Of a stretch of DNA of 64,000 nt, positions 1-63,790 are shown in pieces. The stretch comes from a virus. Location of the stretch: IMG/VR virus record IMGVR_UViG_3300028610_001314. One strand, written 5' to 3'. Position numbers and translations under genes: made by a program. The notes beneath the pieces were generated by a model. That model was not told the DNA's origin. It did no database searches and was given only the letters and a program-made list of their open reading frames with translations. Each line of letters begins with the position of its first letter. Position 1 is the stretch's first letter.

Positions 1-30
1 GGAAATCGAACGAACAGAAAGCCGAACCGC

Positions 31-417
31 ATGGGTAAAAGCGTTAAGAAAAAGTTTGGAATGAAACCATTTATCCCATACCAAAAACCAGAACCATATC
101 GATCAAAAGGCTACAGGGAATACATTGCCACACACCCATGTTGGAGGTGTGGAAAGGGACCAACAGAGGCGGCACATTCAACCCTTGGTCGAGCCGGAAC
201 GTCAACCAAGGCCCCTGATTCTCAATGCCTACCGGAATGTGTCCATTGTCACCGAATCAAAAAGCATATGCAGGGCAGGAGTCCCCAGGCAATAGCGGCC
301 AAAGAAAAAATCATTGAGCTTATGTTAGACTATATTGAAAAAGAATATCGGGCCATAGACAGCAGGATGGTTGTGATCGATTTTTTAACTGATTTCATGA
401 AGGAGAAAAAGATATAA
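31..417 (+). CDS. Zn-binding putative HNH-type nuclease (DUF968-like)
   Basis: CWRCG...AAH...G...KAPD..CLPECVHCH pattern typical of lambdoid DUF968-like proteins. Confidence 0.6.
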   Translation: MGKSVKKKFGMKPFIPYQKPEPYRSKGYREYIATHPCWRCGKGPTEAAHSTLGRAGTSTKAPDSQCLPECVHCHRIKKHMQGRSPQAIAAKEKIIELMLDYIEKEYRAIDSRMVVIDFLTDFMKEKKI

Positions 418-9853: not shown

Positions 9854-10339
9854 TTAAGCTTTGCCGACTACCGTGATTCCGGTTTTTGAAGGCTTGTATC
9901 TCAGGTGCCAGGTGATCGCTCCGGCAGTTGGGGTGCTATTGCTCATAATCATGTCAATCGTTCCCGGAGGCAATATTAAAGGCGTGGAACAACCCAGAGG
10001 TAACGCCGTGGCTGGCTCTGCATAAACAACCGCATCTCCAATAGCACCAGTAATATATGCCCATGTGTTTACGATAACAGACTGAAGATCAACCGCAGTA
10101 CACATCACAGTATCAGCACCGGCAGTCGGATCCATCTGTAGCTGCATTGTACTTGCACCACCAGACGTAACCGCCGTTGTGAATTCCCCGATAAGCGATA
10201 TGACCTCAATCGCCCCGCCTGTAATCGTAAAGATGTCGGCCACCGTTCCCCCGGTTACAACCTGAGCACCGGCAGATACGGCTTTTTCGGCCATGTCTAA
10301 AAGAGCTTCATAAACTTTTCCATCGACCAATTCAGTCAT
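9854..10339 (-). CDS. Putative virion protein
   Basis: 161 aa, A/G/T/V-rich beta-type composition, late operon. Confidence 0.6.
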   Translation of the reverse strand: MTELVDGKVYEALLDMAEKAVSAGAQVVTGGTVADIFTITGGAIEVISLIGEFTTAVTSGGASTMQLQMDPTAGADTVMCTAVDLQSVIVNTWAYITGAIGDAVVYAEPATALPLGCSTPLILPPGTIDMIMSNSTPTAGAITWHLRYKPSKTGITVVGKA

Positions 10340-25006: not shown

Positions 25007-25465
25007 TCATTTTTGAAGCTCGTCTAATGACTTGCCTCTTGGTTTAGGGGTAATCCTTCGATATGTTGAAGGTTTCCCAGGGTTATTAAAAACTTCTCGA
25101 TAAGCATTTTGTAATTGGACCTTATCTGCTTTGGTTGCATGGCGAATATCGTCTGCTCTGGATTTGGCCTCTCTTTCACGATAATCTGCAAAATAAGCCG
25201 CTGTTTCGTCAAGGCATTCCCTCATGTCCTTTCTGTGAAGGTCTCCGGCACATAGCCGCAACAATTCCCTTCTGTCCGGTTGCCTAAATCCTACCTTGCT
25301 TACCACCATGATTTCATCAGGGGGTCCCCAGAACTTTTCCCAGGTGATGACAAACCTGTCTAGGTCTTCCCGAAATCGGCAACCAAGTCTCTGATCAAGT
25401 TGTTTGAGCTGCATCATAAAGAAAGGGTCTGGTTTATACCGTCCTGAATAGATTTTTTGAGCCAT
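25007..25465 (-). CDS. Hypothetical protein
   Basis: 152 aa, coupled to the sulfotransferase stop. Confidence 0.65.
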   Translation of the reverse strand: MAQKIYSGRYKPDPFFMMQLKQLDQRLGCRFREDLDRFVITWEKFWGPPDEIMVVSKVGFRQPDRRELLRLCAGDLHRKDMRECLDETAAYFADYREREAKSRADDIRHATKADKVQLQNAYREVFNNPGKPSTYRRITPKPRGKSLDELQK

Positions 25466-26115
25466 TATGGAATATCTCCCAAGTAATAAGGTGAAACCTT
25501 TAAGTCTTTGTAGGCTTCTGCATCCACCCTCACAATTTCGTCCGGTTCGTTAAAGCCTTTTAAGTCTTTATCTGTTTTGTACCTAGTTCGAGCATTCCGA
25601 TCCACAGCTTTAGCCATTTTTTTAATATTCAGATCTACTTCTAAAAAATCTTCGATCTGCATAGCAGTTACTTCTGGATATTTAACAACTTCTTTATATT
25701 TCAAAAACAATGTCGGAATGTCATGTTTTTTAAGATGGTTGCGTGTCCATTCAATCGCTACGGGAATATTTTCGTCCCAGATACTTCTCATTGAAAAAAG
25801 GGATGAAACAATCTCGCAGATATCGCGCTGCATGAAAATAGCCTTAACAGGTCGATCTATCGGAATCACGCTTGCATATGGGCAAACAATCTTGACAGCC
25901 TTGTTCGCTGTTTCGGATTTATCTAACTCCAATATGCTTTTTCCAACATTTTCTAGTTCCTCGCATCCATACGGCGAATACTTGTGCTGCGGTCCGATTG
26001 TAAGCTCATCGGCAAGAACTTCAATGCTAGCATTGCGAAGCATACGCATCATCATGGAAGTCCCAGAACGTGGGAATCCGGTGACAACTAATGTGATTCC
26101 ATTTAAGTCAATCAT
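25465..26115 (-). CDS. Sulfotransferase-family protein
   Basis: 5'-PSB loop VVTGFPRSGTSMMMRML, KAIFMQRD..EIVSS (3'-PB-like), LFLKYKEVV..PE. Confidence 0.8.
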   Translation of the reverse strand: MIDLNGITLVVTGFPRSGTSMMMRMLRNASIEVLADELTIGPQHKYSPYGCEELENVGKSILELDKSETANKAVKIVCPYASVIPIDRPVKAIFMQRDICEIVSSLFSMRSIWDENIPVAIEWTRNHLKKHDIPTLFLKYKEVVKYPEVTAMQIEDFLEVDLNIKKMAKAVDRNARTRYKTDKDLKGFNEPDEIVRVDAEAYKDLKVSPYYLGDIP

Positions 26116-43410: not shown

Positions 43411-44028
43411 TTAATGTGGAAGTTGAGAATTTTCCCTTCGCCCAGCAACCCCAGAGCTGTAAGAAGCACAGGCTGCTGTAATTCCAGCGCCAGTAGCGGC
43501 AAAAGCTTGTGCATCGGCGGCCTTAATCCCGATTGAATGGGCTTCAGCAAAAGCATCCTGATTGGCCGCTAAAAACATGAAATCCCACGACTTTTTTTTG
43601 TCCAGCTTTTCAATCATTGTTTTGATTTGAGATTTTGAAAACTCCCGACTGGCATTTTCATGACCATCTGTGAGGATGGTGAAAATAACTTTTAATGGCC
43701 TCTTTCCTTTGTCCATATCCGCAATCCGCTTCTGAACATCATTCAAGGTCTTTCCAACCGCATCCAAAAGCGCCGTAGTTCCCCTCGGAACATAAGTCTT
43801 GTCCGTAAAGGGTTTAACCTTTTTCAGTGCCAGATTTTCGCAAATGACCTCATACTCATGGTCGAACTGCACAAGGGTCAAAGTTGCTTTCCCAGGAAGC
43901 TTCTGTTGCTCTTTGAGAAAGGTGTTGAAACCTCCGATAGCATCATCAACAATAGATCCCATAGATCCTGACCTGTCAATAACGCATACGATTTCGCAAT
44001 AACCAGTTTTTTTAGCCTTTTTAACCAT
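43411..44028 (-). CDS. von Willebrand factor A domain protein
   Basis: MIDAS DRSGSM, PRGTTALLDAVG, ILTDGHENAS. Confidence 0.9.
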   Translation of the reverse strand: MVKKAKKTGYCEIVCVIDRSGSMGSIVDDAIGGFNTFLKEQQKLPGKATLTLVQFDHEYEVICENLALKKVKPFTDKTYVPRGTTALLDAVGKTLNDVQKRIADMDKGKRPLKVIFTILTDGHENASREFSKSQIKTMIEKLDKKKSWDFMFLAANQDAFAEAHSIGIKAADAQAFAATGAGITAACASYSSGVAGRRENSQLPH

Positions 44029-46089: not shown

Positions 46090-46578
46090 TTAAAATAGTT
46101 CTAGTTGCTTGGATTTATTTTCAAGCCGGGTTCTCATATCCCAAAATCTAAACATATATCCCCGATACATTTTTTCTTTTTGGTGCTTATTTATTTTCTT
46201 GCCGTTAAGCCGCGGAGGTCTTTTCTTTTCTAAACACTTAAAAATGCCATTCCTTTTTTTAAAAATCTCCATATGCCCTGCATATTCAGGAACTTCGCTG
46301 GTCTTAATTAACCCCGAAGGTGTTGCAAACCAAAAATAACGCTGGAAGCATCTCTGATCTTTCTTGAAAAAATGGTGCTTTAGTTTATTAAAATCTGCCT
46401 TGAAGTCTGCCCTGCTTACTTTAATTTCGTATTCAGAAATATAACCGGCTTTTGTAACAGATATTAAATCGGCTTCTGACCATGCCCCTCCGGACAAATA
46501 TATGTTTGGTATAATAAACTCATGGCCCTTGGCTAAAAGATGGTTATAAAGAGCGTTTTGGATTGTAAATTCATTCAT
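46090..46578 (-). CDS. PD-(D/E)XK nuclease, MmcB-like
   Basis: EADLISVT...EYEIKVSRADFKADF.K. Confidence 0.75.
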   Translation of the reverse strand: MNEFTIQNALYNHLLAKGHEFIIPNIYLSGGAWSEADLISVTKAGYISEYEIKVSRADFKADFNKLKHHFFKKDQRCFQRYFWFATPSGLIKTSEVPEYAGHMEIFKKRNGIFKCLEKKRPPRLNGKKINKHQKEKMYRGYMFRFWDMRTRLENKSKQLELF

Positions 46579-47996
46579 TTAAACCTATTCCAGCCTTTCT
46601 GCTTGGTTGACTTCTCAATACGCGGTATTGCATATTGCAAATCAAGATCAATACCGACATATTTTATGCCCAACTCTTCACACACCACGCCTAAAGTCCC
46701 AGATCCAAAGAACATATCTAAAATCAATGCATCTTTCGGAGGCGCAATAAGTTCGACCAAATATTTAATTAGTGATAGTGGTTTAACTGTCGGATGTTTA
46801 TTGTCTTTTCCTCGTTCTGATCGTGAGGCTTTGGCACAATAGAAGAAGCGGGAAGCTCCGCCAGAATCGCAAATTTCTGTTGGGCAATCTGTTCTTTCGT
46901 CCCCCATTTGATCTAAAAACTGGCTGTTTCCATGCTTGCGGATATATTTCCCTTTTGATGGCTGAATTCCCCCGCTTTGTTCATCCAATATCCCAACAGG
47001 ACAATCAGGGTGACAGTTCCATTTTTCTATTTCCTCTAACCCGTTATTATCACCATGTTTATTAAATTCAGTTCTTTTATATTCCCCATAGCAAGCCGTA
47101 TTTTCGTCTCCGGTATGGCTTGGTTCATTTCCTGAAACTGACCCGCTTTTATTCTTGATCTCTTTCGTTCCAACACATTCACATTCTGGGTGGTGAGTTA
47201 ATATTATATTGGCAGGGAACCGGCCTTGTGATTTCATATGCCAATCTGTTTTATGGGTATAGCTCGACTTGTTTTTACGCTTATACCCCTCGGCAACATT
47301 ATCATAAACAGCCCCGCCGTGTTCACGCTTTGCCCCGATGTCACGCGTTGCTATTCGGCTTTTGTCAATATTCAACCCCGCCACACCATGGTTCAGGGCG
47401 TTCTCGGCAAAGGTGCCGTCAACGGACTTCATGGCTACTATTATAGGTTCCCATGCTGGCTTTAGGGCTGTGCCGTATCCGTTCCATTCTTGGGCTTCTG
47501 GGGTTGCTGGAATGGTCAGTTCTATTTCTCCGCTTTCACTTTTGTTCGCAAAATTATTGCCTTGCATTCCGATGTTTGTTATTCTCGTTCCAACAACCTC
47601 ACGATCGGTCCCTGCAGCTTTGTCAATCGCTTTTGAGATATCCAAAGATTTCGGGAAGCCAGAGCCATAGAGCCATTGCATACAGTCTCTAATTTCCCAT
47701 CCGGCATCCTCGATAGCGCACATCAGCCTGTGGTGAGTACGAGTCCCGCCAAAAGCCAAAAGGAAAGCACCTGGTTTTGACACCCTCAAAACCTCTTTCC
47801 ATGTATCAATCTGAAATGCAACACCAGAAGCATCCCACTTTCTGCCCATAAAACCAAGTTCATAGGGCGGATCCGTGACAATACCAGTGAAATAATTATC
47901 CGGAAATGTCGGCATAATATCATTACAATTTCCTTGATAAAGAGTCCCGAGTAGTGAATTATAATCTGGATCCATTATTACCTCACCCTCCAACAA
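46575..47996 (-). CDS. N4/N6 DNA methyltransferase (beta class) with large central insert
   Basis: IVTDPPYELGFMG, GTALKPAWEPI, HPTVKPL, LDMFFGSGT. Confidence 0.9.
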   Translation of the reverse strand: MLEGEVIMDPDYNSLLGTLYQGNCNDIMPTFPDNYFTGIVTDPPYELGFMGRKWDASGVAFQIDTWKEVLRVSKPGAFLLAFGGTRTHHRLMCAIEDAGWEIRDCMQWLYGSGFPKSLDISKAIDKAAGTDREVVGTRITNIGMQGNNFANKSESGEIELTIPATPEAQEWNGYGTALKPAWEPIIVAMKSVDGTFAENALNHGVAGLNIDKSRIATRDIGAKREHGGAVYDNVAEGYKRKNKSSYTHKTDWHMKSQGRFPANIILTHHPECECVGTKEIKNKSGSVSGNEPSHTGDENTACYGEYKRTEFNKHGDNNGLEEIEKWNCHPDCPVGILDEQSGGIQPSKGKYIRKHGNSQFLDQMGDERTDCPTEICDSGGASRFFYCAKASRSERGKDNKHPTVKPLSLIKYLVELIAPPKDALILDMFFGSGTLGVVCEELGIKYVGIDLDLQYAIPRIEKSTKQKGWNRFK

Positions 47997-48269: not shown

Positions 48270-48788
48270 TTAAACCCGAGAAATACCACCACCAGACCAC
48301 AAAACGTCTATAAACGTCCTATCCCCGCGATGCCAGCGGTTATGGTCGCCCTGGTTACGAAATACCATCAAGTTATTAGGATCATTATTATTACAGTTTC
48401 CATCTTCGTGATGAACAACCTCACCCTCAACCAGATAATAACCGCAATCACGAACAGACTTACGAGCCATCCGCATGCCGTAAACAGACCGAATATACTC
48501 TGGATTCTCAAGATGCTTCCAGTAATGCTCCTTACAACAATAATGATTCCGGGTACGCAAAAACACAGAGCGAGTCTTTAAAAAATTCTTCCCACAGGAC
48601 GGTAACGCGCATTTCGCGGCCTTACGGGTATCAGAGGTCTGGATACCGCTTCGATTCAAAAACCGCAAGACAGAACGACCGGTAACAATACCCCCCGTTA
48701 AAACAGCTATCTTGTCCCCTGAATAGCCCTCGTCCCATAATTCAATTATCTTGTCACCTATAACGGAATCCTTAATCTTATCAACCAT
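48270..48788 (-). CDS. HNH endonuclease with N-terminal HTH and Zn motif
   Basis: EVVHHEDGNCNNNDPNNL......H...H; CALPSCG...YCC. Confidence 0.8.
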   Translation of the reverse strand: MVDKIKDSVIGDKIIELWDEGYSGDKIAVLTGGIVTGRSVLRFLNRSGIQTSDTRKAAKCALPSCGKNFLKTRSVFLRTRNHYCCKEHYWKHLENPEYIRSVYGMRMARKSVRDCGYYLVEGEVVHHEDGNCNNNDPNNLMVFRNQGDHNRWHRGDRTFIDVLWSGGGISRV

Positions 48789-49104
48789 ATTACCCTCCTT
48801 TTTAAAGAAGAATAACACACCAATGACGCAAAGTCAACGTCTAATATCGTAAAAGACCTTTTTAGGGGAACTTGAAATCTACTACTATTGGTTTTTGGTA
48901 TAGGTATACGTATATCCGAAGGGGGGTTTTGCCGGGGTGGGGGGGTCTGTTTTGGTAATGTCTTATAATGTATGGCCGATAACATGTATTATGGTGGCTT
49001 TATAATGAAGCGTAATCAATATAACTATCTAACATCACACAGTTATTAAAACCGTCATAAGTTTACACTTAATTACGGTCCATAGATGCACTGTTCATAG
49101 GGCT

Positions 49105-52218: not shown

Positions 52219-53160
52219 ATGGAGAATTCAAACAAAAAAACAGGAACATCAAAGCTTAGAGAATTACAAGCTTTACCGCTTGATGAAAAAATAAAGTTAT
52301 CTATAGACGCTGTTAAATGTTGGCATGAGGCCTGGTCCGGTGATGTTTATATTAGTTTTTCAGGCGGCAAAGATTCAACGGTATTAAAACATTTGGTTCT
52401 GTCTCTTTTTCCTGATATTCTTTCGGTCTTTGTCAATACTGGCTTGGAATTCCCTGAAATTGTTAGCTTTGTAAAAACACATGATAATGTAAAAATTATA
52501 AGGCCAAAAATGCCATTTCATAAAGTTATTGAAAAATGGGGTTATCCTGTAATTTCTAAGCGGACAGCTCAATATATTCATGAAGTTAAAAACGCAAAAG
52601 GAAACACAGCCACGAAGCGGTTAAGATTGACCGGTATTAAAACAGACGGCCGGTTTTTCCAAATGTCTATGATTCCTAAAAAATGGCAGTATCTTTGCGA
52701 TGCACCCTTTAAGATTTCTCATCGATGTTGTTTCGAGTTGAAAAAGAAACCCTTTGCGCTCATTGAAAAAGACTTAACTGCCTTCACCGGCATGATGGCA
52801 GGAGACGGAAACCAGCGCGAAATGACCTACTTGCAGCATGGTGGGTGTAATCAATATGAGATCCGCATCCCAAAATCAAACCCTTTGGCTTTTTGGATAG
52901 AAGCCGACATTTGGGAATATATCAAGCGTTTTGATGTGCCATACTCGAGCGTTTACGACATGGGATACGAGCGTACAGGCTGTGTTTTTTGCTTATTTGG
53001 AGTCCACCTGGAACACCAAAAAACCGGAACAAACCGGATTATACGGTTAAAAAAGACACACCCTAAGCTTTGGAAATACTGTGTTTATAAGCTTGGGATC
53101 GGCCGGGTCATGGATTATATCCATATACCTTATGAAGACAGACAGCTTAAACTTTTTTAA
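52219..53160 (+). CDS. PAPS-reductase-family (PP-loop) protein
   Basis: YISFSGGKDSTVL, FVNTGLEFPE, CC..LKKKP, W...DIWEYI, RTGCVFC. Confidence 0.9.
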   Translation: MENSNKKTGTSKLRELQALPLDEKIKLSIDAVKCWHEAWSGDVYISFSGGKDSTVLKHLVLSLFPDILSVFVNTGLEFPEIVSFVKTHDNVKIIRPKMPFHKVIEKWGYPVISKRTAQYIHEVKNAKGNTATKRLRLTGIKTDGRFFQMSMIPKKWQYLCDAPFKISHRCCFELKKKPFALIEKDLTAFTGMMAGDGNQREMTYLQHGGCNQYEIRIPKSNPLAFWIEADIWEYIKRFDVPYSSVYDMGYERTGCVFCLFGVHLEHQKTGTNRIIRLKKTHPKLWKYCVYKLGIGRVMDYIHIPYEDRQLKLF

Positions 53161-54909: not shown

Positions 54910-56241
54910 TTAATAGTTTGGTTCATATGCTAAATTTTTAAATGTAGTTGTTTTTTTATTCCAGTGAAGTTTTGCCATACCAGTAGGCCCGTTGCGCTGT
55001 TTTGCTATATTAAACTCGGCAATACTCTTGTTCGGGTTGTTTTCATCGTCGTTATAAACTTCATCTCGATACAGAAATGCTATAATATCGGCATCCTGTT
55101 CGATATTACCAGAGTCGCGCAAGTCTGACAGCCGTGGTTTTTTATCGGTTCGCTTTTCCAGTTCCCGGTTTAGTTGTGATAATAAAATCACAGGCACTTC
55201 TAGTTCCTTCGCAAGCGCCTTTAATCCGGCCGTAATAGAGCCAATTTCACGATCCCGGGTGGAACCCTTATCCCCCTGGACAAGCTGAAGGTGGTCAATA
55301 ATAAATAGTTTAATCCCTTCTTTTTTCTTTATTTCCCATGCTCTCCTGCGGATCTCATTGTAATGAAGAGAAGCAGAATCATCAAGAAATACAGGCCATG
55401 TGGTTATTTTACCCAATGCCTCTGTGATTTTAAACCAATCATCTTGTTTGAAATTGCCAGATCTAAATCTTTGGGAATTAACTCCGCTTTCCCCCGCTGT
55501 CTGTCTTGCGTAAAGTTGACGTTTAGACATTTCTAAGGAAAATATCGCCACGGGAACACCTTTTTCTCCTAAATATCCAGCTATATTAATCGCCAACGCT
55601 GTTTTTCCCATGCTCGGCCTTGCTGCGATGACAATTAGGTCTGTGTCTTGAAGGCCGCACGTTATTGAATCAACCACATGAAATCCTGTTGCCAATCCGG
55701 TAATTTTCTCTTTCTGGTTGGATATTTCTTCATAATGATCTACTTCTGAGTTTGTTAATTCTCCATATGAAACAAACGTACCACCGGCCCCAGTATCGAT
55801 TTCGCTTATTTGCTTTTGGGTTTGATCGATTATAGACTCGATATTTTCCTGATCTTCAAAACATTGCCTGGCAGTATTGTGTGATATTTCAATCATTTTT
55901 CTTAGGGCATATTTGTCTCTGATTATTTGGATGTGATGTTTAATATTATGACTTATAGGGATCTCGTCTACTAATCTTGCTAAATAGGTGGCTCCACCAA
56001 TTTCTTCTAACTGTTTCAGTTCTCTAAGTTTTGTCGAAACCTCCACTAAACCTGGCGCAATATCTTTGTTTAATAATTCAAGAATAACGGTATATATCTT
56101 TTGGTGAGCAGTTTTATAAAAATGCTCTGGTAATAATTGTAGTGCAATATCGTCTGTATAACCCAAAAGACATGAGGCTAATATTGATACCTCAACGTCT
56201 AAATCTTGTGGCGGTACATGGTTAGTTATCATATAATTCAT
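54910..56241 (-). CDS. dnaB: Replicative DNA helicase DnaB
   Basis: PPQDLDVE, IAARPSMGKT, FSLEMS, IDHLQL, LSQLNRELEKR, SDLRDSGNIEQDAD, KQRNGPTG. Confidence 0.97.
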   Translation of the reverse strand: MNYMITNHVPPQDLDVEVSILASCLLGYTDDIALQLLPEHFYKTAHQKIYTVILELLNKDIAPGLVEVSTKLRELKQLEEIGGATYLARLVDEIPISHNIKHHIQIIRDKYALRKMIEISHNTARQCFEDQENIESIIDQTQKQISEIDTGAGGTFVSYGELTNSEVDHYEEISNQKEKITGLATGFHVVDSITCGLQDTDLIVIAARPSMGKTALAINIAGYLGEKGVPVAIFSLEMSKRQLYARQTAGESGVNSQRFRSGNFKQDDWFKITEALGKITTWPVFLDDSASLHYNEIRRRAWEIKKKEGIKLFIIDHLQLVQGDKGSTRDREIGSITAGLKALAKELEVPVILLSQLNRELEKRTDKKPRLSDLRDSGNIEQDADIIAFLYRDEVYNDDENNPNKSIAEFNIAKQRNGPTGMAKLHWNKKTTTFKNLAYEPNY

Positions 56242-57381: not shown

Positions 57382-57480
57382 TACTATGAAATGGTTTCAA
57401 TTGTCAAGGAAAAAACAAAAACAATTAAATGAACTTATTTCAAAATAAAGGTTGACAACTCACATTCCTTTATAATAAGG
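57381..57480. promoter_or_regulatory. Divergent promoter region
   Basis: TTGACA on - strand at 57402-57407 (N18-TAATGT) and on + strand at 57452-57457. Confidence 0.5.
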
Positions 57481-57854
57481 ATGAACCATAAAAGTAATTT
57501 GTCCTGATTATAATAAATGTGACAAGCAGCCGCTTAATAAAGAATCAAGCAAACATTGCTATCCTCACGCTCCAGACGAATTGTGTAAGGGCGGGTGTGG
57601 TTGGAATGAAAAATTAAATCAAAACAAACCGTGTGTTCAATTTCCAATAGAAGAAGAACGTCCCGATTAGTAGCCGACCCCAATTCCGTGTGCCACCGGC
57701 CGGGAATCAGGCGAAAACTTGGGAACCGACAAAAACCCGTTGGCTTGTAATTCAGAACAAACTTACAACTGGCAGAACCGGTGAGAGAGGCACAGGGTCT
57801 CAGCTTAAAAGGGAAGGCAACTCGCCGTTTCTGCCAAAACAAGAGGATAGAAGG

Positions 57855-58073
57855 ATGAGATGCAAAATTATTAAAATAGGACCGGCAGACGCTTTTTGTC
57901 GTGAACGTGATATTAAGAGGCTTCACAACCAAAAAGGGGTGTTTAAAAGGTCTGATACAACACCTTGTAAATGGTTGCAGGGCAGGTTTATTTTTGACGA
58001 TCCAAAAATAACCAGCGGCGGACGGCTTAGTTTCTATCAAATATGCATTCAGCCACTTGAGCCGTGGTCATAA
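57855..58073 (+). CDS. Hypothetical protein
   Basis: 72 aa from MRCKII, RBS-like AGAGGATAGAAGG. Confidence 0.5.
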   Translation: MRCKIIKIGPADAFCRERDIKRLHNQKGVFKRSDTTPCKWLQGRFIFDDPKITSGGRLSFYQICIQPLEPWS

Positions 58074-58083
58074 GGAGAATTAG

Positions 58084-59304
58084 ATGTCTGAAAAAACAAT
58101 GGACGTAACAGCAGCCCTTGACCATTTAAGAGAATCACACCCAGATGAAGCTAATTGGCTGGATCAGGTTTATAAAAGGGATGTGGTGGCTCTGGGAACG
58201 GATGAATCATACGCTTTAAGGGACTCAGAAGGCGAAATAAGGTGCTATAAAGAAATGTTGACCCTTTCCACTGCTAATGATGGCTTGGTGAAGATACAGG
58301 GCAGGCATACCATATCAGCACAAGGATATGAAGCCTGGGCCGATGCTGTTGGGGCCTCCGTTATTTTTCCGGCCTCTGTCGTGGTAGACGGTAAAAAAAT
58401 TGGCAATCCACATCTAATCAAAGAAAGTGGAAAGGTGGTTTCTGTTTATGCCCGGGCAATAGCTTTCAGATTTTCCGGCAAAGGTGTACCCATGGCATCT
58501 GATTGGACCACCATTCTTGATCTTCGTATATATAAGATGATTGATTTCTTAGCCAAAACAAAAGAATTCCCACAAGCATTTCAGTTTCTACCAAAAGAAG
58601 TGCTACCAGACGGAGCCGAGACAAACAGGTGGGCCGATTATCCTTTTGATGAGAGCACAACCCTTTGGTTCAACACCGCCCATCCAGAGGCTTTAAGGTG
58701 GCTATCAACGATTTTAAACCGAGAAAAAAAAGCCGTTGATTACGCCCAGACCTTCGCAAAACGAAATGCACTTAAACATCTCTCTGGACTACAAAAACCT
58801 CCACAGAACGCAAGCGCGTGGCCCATGGTTGTATATTCCTGGCGTCCGATCCACGGCCAGATGATTAACTGGAATGCCACGAAATATCTTCAATTGCAAG
58901 ATTCGGTTGAAAAACATATCCATGGTGAGCAGATCCAGGTAGAAACCGGTACCGAGCGAGTTGAAGAAGATGCTGATCAGGTCGGCATGGAAGATACCAT
59001 TGATATTGAAGATAAGCCCGAAACCGACGAGCAACCAGAGGAAATCACCCCAGAAGATAAAGAGGAAGCCATTGACGTAGAGGTTCAGGAAACGGAGCCC
59101 GAACCGGAAGTTGAAGAGCTGGACGCTGTTGAGGAATATTCTTCTGATGATAAAAAGATTGTCGAGTCTTATCAGAAAGCTAAATCCTTTTTTGATGATT
59201 ATGCATATCCAGAAGCATGTAAAAAATTAAAACTAGACCCCAAAGGAAAACATACCGTAGAACAGATGGAGCTAATCAATAAGGCTATTAATAATATGGT
59301 GTAA
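58084..59304 (+). CDS. Putative single-strand annealing protein (Rad52/RecT-like) with acidic C-terminal tail
   Basis: ISAQGY..., AQTFAKRNALKHL end-of-core motif; D/E-rich linker; recombination context. Confidence 0.5.
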   Translation: MSEKTMDVTAALDHLRESHPDEANWLDQVYKRDVVALGTDESYALRDSEGEIRCYKEMLTLSTANDGLVKIQGRHTISAQGYEAWADAVGASVIFPASVVVDGKKIGNPHLIKESGKVVSVYARAIAFRFSGKGVPMASDWTTILDLRIYKMIDFLAKTKEFPQAFQFLPKEVLPDGAETNRWADYPFDESTTLWFNTAHPEALRWLSTILNREKKAVDYAQTFAKRNALKHLSGLQKPPQNASAWPMVVYSWRPIHGQMINWNATKYLQLQDSVEKHIHGEQIQVETGTERVEEDADQVGMEDTIDIEDKPETDEQPEEITPEDKEEAIDVEVQETEPEPEVEELDAVEEYSSDDKKIVESYQKAKSFFDDYAYPEACKKLKLDPKGKHTVEQMELINKAINNMV

Positions 59305-59586: not shown

Positions 59587-60651
59587 ATGATATCAGCGGT
59601 AAAAGCAAAGGGATTTAAAGGTCTGACTTTCACTCAAGAACTCGGACCTAAAAACATTTTCTTTGGTGGCAATGGTTCAGGGAAGTCTGCCAGGAAAGAG
59701 GCGCTTATTCTTGGAGTCAACGGCCCTACAGGAAAACAAAACTCCGCGGTATTAAATGCTTACGGCAAAGGGGAAAATCCCGTTGAAGTCGGTATAAAGA
59801 TCGTTGATACTTGGTTTGATCGCATATTCAAAAAGGCCAAATCCAGCGTTACCCAAATCCACAAGATTAATAATAAAAAGGTGGATAAAATTAAATTCGC
59901 CACCGAAATGGGGAAGGCTATCGGGACAGTCAGCGCCTTTGATGTTTCCAGTTTTGTGGATGCTTCTGATAAGAAAAAAATCTCACAGGTATTTGATTTA
60001 TTCCCGCCCGAAGGTGATGTTAGCTCTGTGGAAGATGAAATTGACGCACTTAAAACAGAGATTAACGCCAGGCATGCATCTATACGAGTGGCAGAGGAAT
60101 TGGTTGCCAAGCTTACAAAATCAATTGCCGAAACCGAACTACCACCCGGGACCTTGGCTATGACAGTGAATGATAAAGAAAAAATTGCCAATGAAATCGA
60201 TGTTGTTCAAGCTGAGATCCAAAAAGAAAAAGATGCAGAGGCCAAGCGTATAGCAGATGAAAAAACGAAAAAAGCAGAGGACGATGCCAGGGTTGAGGAA
60301 AAGGCAAAAGCCAAGGAACAGGCAGATAAAACGGCCAAGAAAACGGCAGCAGATACCAAGCGCCAGGTAGAAGTAGCCGTAATAGAGACAGAAAAACAAC
60401 ACATCTCTCCAGACGGAGTCGCTGCAGAACAACAAATGCTTAACAAAATGTCACCCAAAAAACGCGCCCAGATCGTAGATCCTCAACAAGTTGCCTCCAA
60501 TAGTTATGATGTGGGCATTAAAGCCGTTGAAACGATCATAGATGTTATCAATAACATGAAAGAATGTAATAACTGCTTTGCGGAAATGGTGGCCAATGCA
60601 GAGCTTAAGAAGCTGTTTGAACTTAAAAAAACTTCGATGATTAAATTCTAA
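59587..60651 (+). CDS. Rad50/SbcC-like ATPase, N-terminal half
   Basis: GFKG...NIFFGGNGSGKS..EAL Walker A, long coiled coil, C-terminal CNNC. Confidence 0.75.
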   Translation: MISAVKAKGFKGLTFTQELGPKNIFFGGNGSGKSARKEALILGVNGPTGKQNSAVLNAYGKGENPVEVGIKIVDTWFDRIFKKAKSSVTQIHKINNKKVDKIKFATEMGKAIGTVSAFDVSSFVDASDKKKISQVFDLFPPEGDVSSVEDEIDALKTEINARHASIRVAEELVAKLTKSIAETELPPGTLAMTVNDKEKIANEIDVVQAEIQKEKDAEAKRIADEKTKKAEDDARVEEKAKAKEQADKTAKKTAADTKRQVEVAVIETEKQHISPDGVAAEQQMLNKMSPKKRAQIVDPQQVASNSYDVGIKAVETIIDVINNMKECNNCFAEMVANAELKKLFELKKTSMIKF

Positions 60652-60655
60652 AACC

Positions 60656-61291
60656 ATGAAAACAAGACCGATAATATTTCAACCCGACTCGGTTCGGGCG
60701 ATTTTTGGTGGTAGGAAATCGCAGACACGAAGGATTGTTAATATTCGCCCTGGAGATCATTTTAACACCAACAAGATTGAAGTCGGAATGGTTTCCGGTG
60801 ATAAGGGCGAATATTACGGGTTTACGTCAGAAGAATATGACTACAAATGCCCCTACGGAGTTCCCGGCGACAGGCTTTGGGTCAGAGAATCTTGGTGCGT
60901 TCATGCCCGATATGACGGACTCAGACCAAAGGTGTTGCCCGAGATAAAATACCTGCAAAATGCCGTAACGCATATGGCAGATGTTTACAAAGCCGAAAAG
61001 TCTTTATGGATGGGCAAGACACGACCATCAATATTTATGCCCCGTAAATATTCCCGCCTTACGCTCGAAATCACGAATATCAGGGTTGAGAGGGTGCAGG
61101 ATATAAGCACGCATGATGCTTATTGGGAGGGTGTTGAAGATTGCGATGTGTTCGGTCACGATGATTGTTTTTATGGAACTGTTGGCAGGGTGTGTTCATT
61201 CGAAAGACTTTGGGACAAGATGCACGGCAAAAAATACCCCTGGTCAAGCAATCCCTGGGTTTGGGTGATTGAATTTAAAAAGGAGCCATAA
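60656..61291 (+). CDS. Conserved phage ASCH/PUA-like protein
   Basis: MKTRPIIF...RAIFGGRKSQTRR, CPYG.PGDRLWVRE, PSIFMPR..SRLTLEIT..RVER, NPWVWVIEF. Confidence 0.8.
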   Translation: MKTRPIIFQPDSVRAIFGGRKSQTRRIVNIRPGDHFNTNKIEVGMVSGDKGEYYGFTSEEYDYKCPYGVPGDRLWVRESWCVHARYDGLRPKVLPEIKYLQNAVTHMADVYKAEKSLWMGKTRPSIFMPRKYSRLTLEITNIRVERVQDISTHDAYWEGVEDCDVFGHDDCFYGTVGRVCSFERLWDKMHGKKYPWSSNPWVWVIEFKKEP

Positions 61292-61875
61292 TGACACAAA
61301 TACCAGAACTAGAACAGCAACTACAGGGACTCAAGGCAAGAAAACTTGAACTTGAAGCCAACGAAAAGATTTTTATAAAGGTCCAGGGTTTGACAGAAAG
61401 CATGGAGAAAACTCGGGCTGAAATTGGGGGCCTAGAGGATGATAACACCCCAGCAAAAGAGTCTCTATCCGAACTCGAATACAAAAGGGCTCAGTTAATC
61501 AAAAAACCCTTGATGATAATGCAAGAATCTATGGACTCTGTAATGCCAGAAGGGAAATCTGCCATTATAGAAATTACAGATGAAAATGAGGTTAAGTTCG
61601 GAATTTTATCAACCGGTCCCGATGGAGTTGTGTTTTCGCCACACGCAGGTTTGTCAGGATCAGAGCAGGTCATGTTCGACCAGGCCCTCACCTTTGCGCT
61701 CATGAAGAATTCTGATCATGTGATATTGTGTTATGAAGCAGCCGAAATTGATGATAACGGTCTGGTAGAACTGATAAAATCATTACATGACCAGAAAGGC
61801 GCTCAGATTATTGTAAATTCATGCCACAACCCAGATGTAACATTTAGCAAAGAATGGAATACGGTTCAATTATAA
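61291..61875 (+). CDS. Rad50/SbcC-like ATPase, C-terminal half
   Basis: Coiled coil then GLSGSEQ signature, ILCYEAAEID (Walker B/D-loop), IIVNSCH (H-loop). Confidence 0.75.
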   Translation: MTQIPELEQQLQGLKARKLELEANEKIFIKVQGLTESMEKTRAEIGGLEDDNTPAKESLSELEYKRAQLIKKPLMIMQESMDSVMPEGKSAIIEITDENEVKFGILSTGPDGVVFSPHAGLSGSEQVMFDQALTFALMKNSDHVILCYEAAEIDDNGLVELIKSLHDQKGAQIIVNSCHNPDVTFSKEWNTVQL

Positions 61876-61887
61876 TATAAAAGTGGT

Positions 61888-62166
61888 ATGGAAACCGTTA
61901 TTACATATAAAGAGTTTTATGAAAAATCTAAAACAGAGCCGCGCCTACAACAGCTTGTTGGTCAATGTCTAATGAGTGCCCTTAAGGTCGCCAAAAAAGC
62001 AGAAAAAGTATTTCCAAATAGCCCAAAAGCGGATATTGGTTATTTAATATTGTCAGCCATTAAAACCATAGGTCAAATAGAAGGTTTCGTGCTTGTTGGC
62101 GAAGAAGAAATTGATGCTGAATATATGAGCGAAATATTAAATTCTTATCAAGGAGCAAGGCCATGA
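61888..62166 (+). CDS. Hypothetical protein
   Basis: 92 aa, operon context. Confidence 0.55.
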   Translation: METVITYKEFYEKSKTEPRLQQLVGQCLMSALKVAKKAEKVFPNSPKADIGYLILSAIKTIGQIEGFVLVGEEEIDAEYMSEILNSYQGARP

Positions 62167-62324
62167 ATTGTCCAAAATGTGAAGCTGAATTAAATGAAGA
62201 TAATTTTAAAATAGTTGTGTGGGACAGTTCGGCCGATATCGAGCTAACCTGCCCTTCCTGTGAAATCGAAGATGACCCCTTTCTTTCTTTCGACCAGGAA
62301 TATTTAAACGAAAATATTTATTAA
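62163..62324 (+). CDS. Zinc-ribbon microprotein (53 aa, not in track)
   Basis: MNCPKC...LTCPSC; ATGA-coupled. Confidence 0.55.
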   Translation: MNCPKCEAELNEDNFKIVVWDSSADIELTCPSCEIEDDPFLSFDQEYLNENIY

Positions 62325-62338
62325 AAGGAGCAAAGGTC

Positions 62339-62743
62339 ATGCTGAAACAAGAATACGCATCAAAAATGGTAAAGGTTAACTTCACACAAGCTGAAATGGT
62401 TGACCTCGGAGGAAGATTAGCTGAACAACATCAGGATTTTGAAGATTTAGAAATCCAGAAGTCCGCAGCGTCTTCAGACTTCACGGCCCGGATTAAGGCT
62501 GTACGCCTTGCTATCGCTGGATTATTCCGCAAGATTAAAGATGGTTTTGAAATGCAGCGACATGATTGTCTCGTTGAATATGATTACAATCTCAACATGG
62601 TTCATTATGTTTTTGAGCGCAATGGCTTACGAACCATTGTTGAACAGCGAAGCATGACCCCGGCCGAAAGACAAGTGGCCTTGGCCTTGGAATTCAAAAA
62701 GAAACTTTTCAACGGCAACAATATCGAAACCTTCATTTCCTAA
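62339..62743 (+). CDS. Hypothetical protein
   Basis: 134 aa, AGGAG RBS, coiled coil. Confidence 0.7.
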   Translation: MLKQEYASKMVKVNFTQAEMVDLGGRLAEQHQDFEDLEIQKSAASSDFTARIKAVRLAIAGLFRKIKDGFEMQRHDCLVEYDYNLNMVHYVFERNGLRTIVEQRSMTPAERQVALALEFKKKLFNGNNIETFIS

Positions 62744-62749
62744 TAAATC

Positions 62750-63169
62750 ATGCGTGTCAAACACAAAGCTGTCATTCGCCACGGAAAAATGAAACTCGAT
62801 GATCCTGACTTGTTCAAAAAGGAGATGAAGTCTTTCAAGGATGGATCTGAGGTTTATTTTGTCGTGAAGCCAAAAGAGCCCACCATAGATGACCAACTCA
62901 GGCGATATTACTTTAGCCAGGTGCTACACTTGATATCAGAAGAAACCGGAATGTTATCGAAAGATGATCTTCACCTAAACATGAAAATCAAGTTTGCCAG
63001 CTATATTGACGAGAGAACCGGCATGACCGTGACACATTCTGTCTTTTCAGATGGATCTACCATGGGTGTTGCTATTAAAAGAAAGTTTATCTGGAATGTA
63101 AAACAGTGGGCCTTTGAGTTTTTAAACATTACGTTTCCAGAGAAGGGTGAGGCTGAAAGTGACCAATGA
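62750..63169 (+). CDS. NinB/YbcN-like recombination protein
   Basis: TIDDQLRRYYFS.VL..ISEETG..SKDDLH..MK..F. Confidence 0.6.
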   Translation: MRVKHKAVIRHGKMKLDDPDLFKKEMKSFKDGSEVYFVVKPKEPTIDDQLRRYYFSQVLHLISEETGMLSKDDLHLNMKIKFASYIDERTGMTVTHSVFSDGSTMGVAIKRKFIWNVKQWAFEFLNITFPEKGEAESDQ

Positions 63170-63328
63170 TGGAACTTATAAAATTTATATTTAGTGGGTT
63201 TTGGATATTTTTTGGGTTCTTGGTATTAATATGTGCAATTTCAAATAGACATTGGAATATCAGAAAACACGGATACCCACCATCCCACTGTGATGCCGAT
63301 GGAGATTTCAAGAAAGAAGAATCTTAAG

Positions 63329-63790
63329 ATGAAAGTGATTAGTTTATGGCAGCCATGGGCCTCCTTGATGGCCTGGGGAATAAAAACAATCGAAACGAGA
63401 CATTGGCCGTTACCTCAAAACATAAAAGGGCCGATAGCTATCCATGCCGCAAAAAAGTTAGTTAAAGTCAAAGATCCTTATTTCGAGGATGCTTTGTTGG
63501 AGCGCAATTTGTCTTACAATGATCTGCCGAGAGGGTTTATTCTTTGCTATTTTGACACAGTAGAATGTATCCTGATCAACTACCGGCAAGATGGTGTGCC
63601 GGATTATCCAGAAAGAGCTTTTGGAGATTATACACCAGGACGATATATGTGGAAAATGAAAGGATTGAATGTATTGCCGTGGCCACTAATGATCCAGGGA
63701 AGGCAGGGAATATGGAACTGGAACACAAGCGAACATCCAATTCCCTCAAATGATGTAGCAAAACCAGAACAGCAATTAAAATTGTTTTAA
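63329..63790 (+). CDS. ASCH-domain protein
   Basis: MKVISLWQPWASLMAWGIKTIETRHW, IAIHAAKK, GRQGIWNW. Confidence 0.85.
   Translation: MKVISLWQPWASLMAWGIKTIETRHWPLPQNIKGPIAIHAAKKLVKVKDPYFEDALLERNLSYNDLPRGFILCYFDTVECILINYRQDGVPDYPERAFGDYTPGRYMWKMKGLNVLPWPLMIQGRQGIWNWNTSEHPIPSNDVAKPEQQLKLF

Follow-up and report, generated by a model that had tools for sequence, protein, structure and literature searches.

The 64,000-nt stretch considered here (the window; IMG/VR virus record IMGVR_UViG_3300028610_001314) belongs to a contig of 64,498 nt and is, by its composition and gene content, nearly the whole genome of an uncultured phage. Within it we analyzed two open reading frames (ORFs), referred to below as the N-half and the C-half of a split ATPase, together with the ASCH-like middle gene that separates them and two further genes, encoding a 406-aa protein and a UvrD-like helicase (Table 1). 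An earlier note, for which only the letters of the window were available, had taken the two ORFs for a Rad50/SbcC-like ATPase divided at its zinc hook. The N-half starts with an ATG eight bases after AAAGGAG and ends with a TAA, the middle ORF begins four bases beyond that end, and the TAA of the middle gene overlaps the ATG of the C-half (TAATG), the AAGGAG serving the C-half being located within the last codons of the middle gene. The two halves share one reading frame. The sequence thus agrees with the statement of the earlier note that an intact, unrelated gene lies between the halves and is coupled to the C-half through TAATG.

Table 1. Genes and motifs of the split ATPase, followed by the other genes discussed (positions are those of the window).
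Feature	Position	Strand	Remark
N-half of split ATPase, 354 aa	59587..60651	+	ABC N-lobe, helical arm, terminal hairpin
Walker A GGNGSGKS, N-half residues 27-34	59665..59688	+	G27, G32 and K33 invariant in one family alignment
Q-loop glutamine, N-half Q90	59854..59856	+	Nearly invariant alignment column
C327-N-N-C330, zinc-hook-like, at the turn of a helix-loop-helix	60565..60576	+	Invariant in one family alignment
C-half of split ATPase, 194 aa	61291..61875	+	Descending helix of ~85 residues and ABC C-lobe
ABC signature LSGSEQ, C-half L121-Q126	61651..61668	+	Family consensus LSGGE/Q
Walker B variant and D-loop, ILCY-E149-AA-E152-I-D154	61723..61752	+	Walker B aspartate absent
H-loop S-C-H, C-half residues 177-179	61819..61827	+	C178 in 52/58, H179 in 51/58 C-halves
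Middle ASCH-like gene, 211 aa, phrog_874	60656..61291	+	Between the ATPase halves
Upstream protein, 406 aa, phrog_32428	58084..59304	+	Candidate Rad52/RecT/Red-beta-fold annealing protein
Small ORF, 83 aa	59319..59570	+	Weak DUF5053 match; outside the conserved module
UvrD/PcrA-like superfamily 1 helicase, 588 aa	697..2463	+	Pfam UvrD-helicase and UvrD_C

The N-half is laid out as an ABC N-lobe, an ascending helix with an LPxG break, a charged disordered tether, and a terminal helix-CxxC-helix hairpin, with 24 residues separating C327-N-N-C330 from the TAA; the earlier description of an ORF that bears Walker A and coiled coil and ends just after CNNC is therefore borne out. We compared it with 160 N-half sequences (the best 150 cluster representatives plus earlier matches), of which 139 contain GxxGxGK[ST] and 145 carry the CxxC within their last 60 residues, the median tail beyond it being 19 residues. 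Both hook cysteines are lost in about seven of the 160 and about seven have CxxxC, so the hook, as judged from the alignment, appears to be a common but dispensable element of the family. Examples without either cysteine are the N-half tail of locus L003 and the cluster representatives P0039, P0061, P0085, P0092, P0148, and P0156, while CxxxC occurs, for example, in L019, P0074, and P0081. The distance from LPxG to CxxC spans 93–281 residues, whereas C-half length is near constant (180–206 aa), which indicates that much of the N-half arm has no pairing partner. The earlier note had placed the split at the coil apex formed by the zinc hook; the cut does follow the hook, but in the predicted structure the latter does not form the apex of a matched coiled coil; it is an entire helix-CxxC-helix hairpin carried by an unpaired tether. 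Among known proteins, the N-half profile matches UvrA, SMC1A, and Rad50 weakly.

Regarding the C-half, the motifs listed in the earlier note were all found in place, i.e., LSGSEQ at L121-Q126, YE for DE at Y148-E149, EID at E152-D154, and SCH at residues 177–179. Across 58 C-halves, the signature is conserved at L (58/58), S (55/58), and G (57/58), and Q172, ahead of the H-loop, is present in all. The family pattern of Walker B and D-loop is hhhhE-AA-E-h-D, with E149 and E152 present in 58/58 sequences each and D154 in 50/58, while the five commonest residues at position 148 (Y in the window) are V, L, I, Q, and Y, with no D listed. HMMER places E149 opposite the Walker B aspartate of SMC heads. 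The motif had been called degenerate in the earlier note, and the aspartate is indeed missing, but the invariance of E149 and E152 makes the change a trait of the family and not a sign of decay; the altered Walker B may correspond to slow hydrolysis or to a relocated catalytic base. When set against the motifs of Rad50/SbcC, Walker A, Q-loop, signature, D-loop, and H-loop are conserved, and the D-E pair of Walker B is not found. With its profile, the C-half picks up SMC3 (the best, E 6.4e-11), SMC1, bacterial Smc, and Rad50 (to E 5e-4), in each case at the C-terminal half of the head. Curated models remain below their thresholds, with 19 bits for Pfam AAA_23 (cut-off 27), 12.9 bits for SMC_N (cut-off 40) and, on a joined read-through of the two halves, 16.5 bits for NCBIfam Rad50 (PRK03918; cut-off 700).

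According to the wider searches, the division into two chains is shared by the whole family. The N-half profile, run against 1.84 billion cluster representatives, gave 2467 matches at E ≤ 1e-3, of which 229 reach E ≤ 1e-30; in the best 150 representatives, 257–488 aa long, the match covers the whole span from residue 1 to the hook. All 160 N-half sequences stand alone within that length range, the 488-aa one having a longer linker, and stand-alone relatives of 316–382 aa share 31–67% identity with the N-half. The C-half profile retrieved 46 proteins, all of 180–206 aa. Clustered at 50% identity, the family falls into hundreds of groups, and every one has the length of a split protein. We also compared the loci of relatives, 21 from IMG/VR and 20 from bacterial genomes, of which 36 hold a complete N-half; in 36/36 of these (27–45% identity) a stop codon follows the hook and the C-half ORF comes next, the halves being arranged in three frame relations. 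A C-half was missed by tblastn in four loci, each of which has a 195-aa ORF at that place, and the ORF of L014 was aligned to the C-half profile with an hhalign probability of 100. The spacing between the halves falls in most loci between -26 nt (overlap) and +21 nt (gap), which fits translational coupling. No fused full-length form appeared in a search restricted to longer proteins, which is weak evidence by the tool's own account, and tblastn of both halves against 50,697 phage records yielded zero matches. The comparison points to a natural, ancient, and conserved split that is common to hundreds of related phages. It upholds the view of the earlier note that the division is no frameshift artefact, and the synteny survey proposed there shows an arrangement common to all 36 loci and not unique to this genome, with its motifs conserved.

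In three relatives the halves are in frame with a single stop between them, namely L001 (6985–6996, TGA), L026 (~10256–10261, TGA-ATG), and L028 (~10259–10264, TAA-ATG). These cases are too few to argue for stop-codon read-through that makes a fused chain, and the arrangement is probably due to chance, although occasional read-through in these loci is possible.

The fold was predicted for L001 read through its one in-frame TGA (as W), a protein that corresponds to P0207. The alignment used was unpaired, with N-half rows covering the N-lobe only and all rows checked to lie on the correct half; hook-only rows were scattered and were dropped, so that the hook and the N-half arm rest on three sequences. 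The model has a mean predicted local distance difference test (pLDDT) score of 84.8, with values of 96–98 through most of the N-lobe and mostly about 90 in the C-lobe. The paired helices (residues 148–185, 193–257, and 335–418) mostly exceed 90 and form a paired arm of about 85 residues, and the N-half arm continues in a long charged helix that gives way to disorder (pLDDT below 50 at residues 256–291). Foldseek gave 206 matches to the PDB at E ≤ 1e-3, headed by the Pyrococcus Smc head with arm (E 2e-14) and including LmuB structures. With VIA-align, the highest scores belonged to Smc (4i99; Z 16.9, root-mean-square deviation 4.3, 264 residues), Smc4 (16.7), and MukB (3euk; 16.7), followed by SbcC (6s85; 16.3), Rad50 (4ncj; 16.0), and RecN (4aby; 15.0), each match spanning model residues 1 to about 535. 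These tied scores assign the fold to the SMC/Rad50 superfamily and make no choice between Rad50 and SMC. At fold level, the predicted bipartite ABC head with its antiparallel helical arm is that of the SMC/Rad50 superfamily. In the PDB, there are also Rad50 heads whose N and C parts are different chains (1f2t_A/B, 1ii8_A/B, and 3qkr_A/B), which provide a precedent for assembly in trans. The model thus supports reading the two ORFs as putative parts of a single SMC/Rad50-like ABC ATPase, each coding for one half, with assembly necessarily in trans; the heterodimeric SMC-like ATPase proposed in the earlier note gains support both from the half-set of motifs on each chain and from the read-through head (pLDDT 84.8, Z of about 16–17).

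The middle gene shows a different history. It matches phrog_874 (E 2.2e-61) and has homologues in 343 phage records from many hosts, some of which call the product 'RNA-binding protein', whereas the ATPase halves match no phage record. Its nearest named cluster in the Atlas is ASCH (0.90, 199 shared features), which is a lead. A Pfam scan of the gene gave no family at E ≤ 1, and BLASTP against the bona fide ASCH gene of the window (63329–63790) gave no significant match; an ASCH-like identity is nevertheless a reasonable lead. That second ASCH gene (+), 2 kb downstream, has matches to Pfam ASCH (E 1.6e-4) and phrog_3193 (E 5.8e-31), and homologues of it occur near the module in L013 and L016.

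The halves abut in 31 of the 36 related loci, and the other five carry something else. The inserts consist of a 181-aa ORF in L013, ORFs of 65 and 178 aa in L019, ORFs of 234 and 68 aa in L041, about 255 nt in L034, and 187 nt without an ORF in L021, and none seems related to another or to the middle gene of the window. The 234-aa protein of L041 (10212–10916, in a Deltaproteobacteria metagenome-assembled genome) lies within a 1.15-kb insert, and its N-terminus presumably resembles PAPS-reductase-type phage proteins. In L017 and L037, the middle gene has homologues, but these lie away from the junction and in part on the other strand. Judged by stop-to-stop distances, insertions are tolerated at each of the three junctions of the module described below, and the window is expanded at every one of them; at the junction holding the 83-aa ORF, for instance, the distance is 1347 nt in the window versus a median of 1002 nt, and the flanking genes abut in most relatives. 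The loci of the closest relatives (61–68% identity, P0002–P0007) were not among the hits of the genome and metagenome contig scans made with the close-relative alignment. Because the halves adjoin in most relatives, the other inserts are unrelated, and 343 records hold the gene without the ATPase, the middle gene is best viewed, from these comparisons, as a later, independent, and widespread phage gene that landed in an ordinary intergenic junction, and probably not as a subunit.

ORF clustering over 39 loci indicated that the halves belong to a larger unit. Four families recur, namely the upstream protein (38 loci), the N-half (38), the C-half (37), and the UvrD-like helicase (35), with no fifth family. 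The family of the 406-aa protein is highly conserved and lies directly upstream of the N-half in 38/39 loci, a helicase homologue lies downstream of the C-half in 35/39, and the order 406-aa protein, N-half, C-half, helicase is kept in IMG/VR phages and in 20 Desulfobacterota genomes. In compact loci (L022–L029), the four genes are packed end to end. The real unit therefore appears, from gene content and order, to be a four-gene module composed of a probable annealing protein, the two ATPase halves, and a UvrD-like helicase. It is present in phage records classed as complete, and the genomic copies have Desulfobacterota hosts, including cultured Solidesulfovibrio and Desulfovibrio strains (L030, from Solidesulfovibrio alcoholivorans DSM 5433, L035, and L038). 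The earlier note overlooked these conserved partners on either side of the halves.

The window helicase contains PF00580 UvrD-helicase (E 1.4e-51) and PF13361 UvrD_C (E 9.5e-32), and scores 265 bits against the PcrA model, which is far below the equivalog cut-off and indicates that it is no orthologue of PcrA, UvrD, or Rep. In the window, small accessory genes and the contig ends separate it from the C-half. If the contig ends join, as the 64,498-nt contig, the shared strand, and the GC skew suggest, some 3 kb of small genes would lead from the C-half to the helicase downstream. Helicases of 870–885 aa, versus the usual ~590 aa, were observed in L003 (4463–7120) and L004 (7753–10365), and a weak Intein_splicing match in the middle of the L003 protein (E 7.7e-4) suggests that it carries an intein.

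No nuclease is conserved in the module. A Pfam scan of 38 window ORFs, which did not extend to the smaller ones, gave no Metallophos match of the Mre11/SbcD type, in agreement with the earlier note within that scope. The search beyond the window that it had called for gave the same answer, as PF00149 was matched in all 14 control genomes but in none of five records of related phages, of which two are 90% complete or more. The proposal of an undescribed phage system for DNA end processing or protection consequently stands in outline, as an undescribed DNA-transaction module without Mre11/SbcD.

The AlphaFold2 model of the upstream protein (pLDDT 72.8) combines a beta-rich core with an acidic disordered linker and, at the C-terminus, a small helical domain. 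VIA-align related it to Rad52 (5jrb; Z 6.7 over 121 aa), Sak (8pq8; Z 6.2 over 110 aa), Mgm101 (9yi6; Z 5.9), and Red-beta (7ujl; Z 5.5); altogether, five members of the Rad52 superfamily match with 102–124 aligned residues at Z 5.5–6.7, a range that the tool calls common, and the sole other rows at that level are dsRBD-like, over about 60 residues. In BFVD, the top match carries the annotation 'recombination protein Bet' (E 2.5e-4) and is followed by several RecT entries, and the nearest named Atlas clusters are RecT and Rad52 (~0.80), which we treat as a lead. Foldseek against the PDB gave nothing at E ≤ 1e-3, sequence profiles gave no annealing-protein match in Pfam or PHROG, and tblastn against the same 50,697 phage records gave no match. 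On the strength of the fold matches, we consider it somewhat more likely than not that the 406-aa protein is an annealing protein.

As for the surroundings of the module, the DnaB gene (54910–56241) and its neighbours point leftward, whereas the module genes point rightward. Between them, positions 57382–58083 form a stretch of 700 nt without a convincing ORF, which is possibly a divergent promoter or origin region. An Rfam scan of the module region and of this stretch gave no match, a repeat scan of the stretch found nothing beyond one 14-nt inverted pair, and promoter and terminator scans of the region gave counts at or below shuffle expectation. Five accessory genes of 92, 53, 134 (phrog_12688), 139, and 53 aa occupy 61888–63327 (+) on the way from the C-half to the helicase, and relatives of the 134-aa and 139-aa genes occur at varying positions around the module in other loci. 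A DUF968-like ORF opens the window (1–417, +). Farther away, Pfam matches identify a PAPS_reduct gene (52219–53160; E 3.3e-22), an N6/N4 DNA methylase (46575–47996, −; E 7e-27), a VWA-domain protein (43411–44028, −), and a sulfotransferase-like protein (25465–26115, −), and there is a weak HNH_3 match at 48270–48818 (−; E 2.9e-4).

When compared to known systems, the split ATPase shares with Rad50, SbcC, and T4 gp46 the ABC head lobes joined by an antiparallel helical arm (head Z 16.0–16.3), a CxxC at a helix-turn-helix far from the head, and a neighbourhood of the DNA-repair type. In contrast to these proteins, it consists of two polypeptides instead of one, its predicted paired arm is only about 85 residues long, and its hook sits on an unpaired variable tether instead of the apex of a matched coil; moreover, it has no Mre11/SbcD that we could find, lacks the Walker B aspartate, and is not recognized by the sequence models. 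SMC, MukB, and RecN provide the best-scoring folds, and SMC3 is the best sequence-profile match of the C-half, but the split ATPase has neither a hinge domain nor a kleisin-type gene and differs in its tiny arm, its CxxC hairpin, and its two chains. The engineered two-chain Rad50 proteins (1F2T, 1II8, and 3QKR) likewise build a head from separate N and C polypeptides with a comparable cut; they are laboratory truncations without most of the arm and hook, whereas the phage cut is natural, falls after the hook, and is family-wide.

Lambda Red Exo-Beta, Rac RecE-RecT, Sak, and Erf resemble the module as a whole, in that an early-region module is arranged around a probable annealing protein of the Rad52 superfamily, and the 406-aa protein has a C-terminal domain resembling those that bind partners. 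Unlike these systems, the module contains no 5'-3' exonuclease partner and has a UvrD-like helicase and an SMC-like ATPase instead, and the 406-aa protein falls in no named family and is absent from the phage records searched. Gabija and Lamassu also pair an ABC ATPase with a UvrD-type helicase, and there is weak similarity to LmuB, AriA, and PtuA; the module differs from them in having no nuclease or effector, an SMC-type instead of an OLD-type head, a replication-region context, and a fixed annealing-like partner. In PADLOC, the helicase matched GajB models (E 2.1e-70), which reflects generic UvrD similarity, given that PcrA, Rep, and UvrD models score equally well. The read-through ATPase gave weak mad3, AriA, PtuA, and LmuB matches (E 6e-7 to 9e-4), the LmuB match (E 9.2e-4) being found on the read-through only, with no gene conserved nearby besides the four core genes. 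No GajA match was obtained for either half or for the read-through.

Taken together, these observations make it probable, in our judgment, that the two ORFs encode two chains of one SMC/Rad50-type ATPase that operates within a conserved, nuclease-free, four-gene phage recombination module. The N-chain would provide Walker A, the Q-loop, and the ascending helix, and the C-chain the descending helix of about 85 residues, the signature, the variant Walker B, the D-loop, and the H-loop. Antiparallel pairing of the two helices would bring the lobes into one head, as in the engineered two-chain Rad50 heads, and the tight translational coupling seen in most relatives could ensure 1:1 amounts of the chains. 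The N-chain would then continue alone, through its charged, partly disordered, and variable tether, to the terminal helix-CxxC-helix hairpin. Two hairpins might share a zinc ion while two heads engage on ATP, giving an (N.C)2 clamp or tether of DNA. In such a scheme, single strands exposed by the helicase would be paired by the annealing protein, with the ATPase keeping DNA ends or partner duplexes next to each other, so that the module could serve recombination-dependent replication or break repair of phage DNA with no dedicated nuclease.

Several points weigh against this interpretation. All functional statements on the module are inferred. The docking of the two lobes rests largely on the AlphaFold prior for ABC heads and not on co-evolution, since the alignment was unpaired, and the hook helices (289–305 and 311–326, with the CxxC between them) have a pLDDT of about 60. 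The canonical Asp-Glu pair is absent from Walker B in 58/58 C-halves, meaning that ATP turnover may be slow or absent, and the members that lack both cysteines or carry CxxxC imply that zinc bridging cannot be universal. The annealing assignment stands on fold matches of Z 5.5–6.7 without support from sequence profiles, and the window helicase is tied to the halves by analogy with relatives and by the presumed wrap of the contig only. The absence of a conserved nuclease is unusual in comparison with known phage recombination systems.

Four other explanations were weighed against the recombination module. That same lack of a nuclease is compatible with a role in counter-defence or end protection, in which the ATPase would cap or bridge phage ends to shield them from the host systems RecBCD, SbcCD, Gabija, or Lamassu, and the helicase and the upstream protein would have auxiliary parts. 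A long-lived ATP-bound clamp, as the variant Walker B suggests, and a location in the early region beside accessory genes would suit such a role, but a strictly conserved helicase and a protein with an annealing-like fold are the make-up of a DNA-processing pathway, and we hold this explanation to be unlikely. Somewhat less likely still is a prophage-borne anti-phage defence of the ABC-ATPase and UvrD type, similar to Gabija or Lamassu, that would exclude superinfecting phages. The GajB matches, the weak mad3, AriA, PtuA, and LmuB matches of the read-through, the LmuB structures among the fold matches, and the many copies in bacterial genomes could be read in this way. However, the GajB matches are generic to UvrD, no OLD/TOPRIM protein, effector of the LmuA/LmuC type, or other nuclease is conserved, the module lies in the replication/early block next to DnaB, phage records classed as complete contain it, and its fixed partner has a fold like that of annealing proteins.

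The remaining two concern the split itself. A third subunit or regulator encoded by the middle gene, the role that the earlier note had held open for the inserted protein, would be in keeping with its tight packing between the halves, its TAATG coupling to the C-half, and the second ASCH gene 2 kb downstream. We nonetheless consider it very improbable in this lineage, given that the junction is without this gene in every other locus examined (the closest relatives, at 61–68% identity, are not among them), that four other loci have seemingly unrelated ORFs at that point, that the L017 and L037 homologues lie elsewhere, that none of the 343 phage records with the gene matches either half, and that all three module junctions take insertions. 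A broken gene, an assembly artefact, or a split caused by the ASCH-like insertion with the halves now decaying might be suspected from the common reading frame of the halves in the window, the foreign gene between them, and the degenerate look of Walker B. It is hardly credible in view of the stop-separated halves in 36/36 loci at 27–45% identity, mostly free of inserts, of the invariant catalytic-site columns in 58 C-halves, including E149 and E152, of the separate start and ribosome-binding site of each half, and of the hundreds of 50%-identity clusters that are all of split length.

With respect to novelty, our literature survey found neither a naturally split SMC/Rad50-like phage ATPase nor this module, although its coverage was incomplete and the result is an absence of evidence. 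The ATPase superfamily itself is known, but we found no description of an obligate build from two chains, of a hook on a tether, of such a change in Walker B, or of a partnership with an annealing protein and a UvrD-type helicase. We therefore put forward, tentatively and as somewhat short of an even chance, an undescribed nuclease-free phage recombination machine made up of a two-chain clamp with a tethered zinc hook and an altered Walker B, a new annealing family of the Rad52 fold, and a UvrD-type helicase. In this machine, unwinding instead of resection would feed annealing, and it would be widespread in uncultured phages and in prophages of Desulfobacterota.

In the textbook view, SMC and Rad50 proteins are single chains whose action is generally taken to depend above all on the length of the arm and on the geometry of the hook or hinge. 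A large natural family in which the cut invariably falls behind the hook would let one read off directly which elements of the SMC/Rad50 architecture cannot be dispensed with, and its short paired arm, floppy hook tether, and lack of the canonical Walker B pair would add to that. Likewise, an annealing protein that works with a UvrD-like helicase and without a conserved nuclease would point to a route unlike Exo/Beta, RecET, or Mre11-Rad50. The module is testable because the cultured strains named above carry it, and it may supply recombineering parts for anaerobes such as Desulfovibrio.

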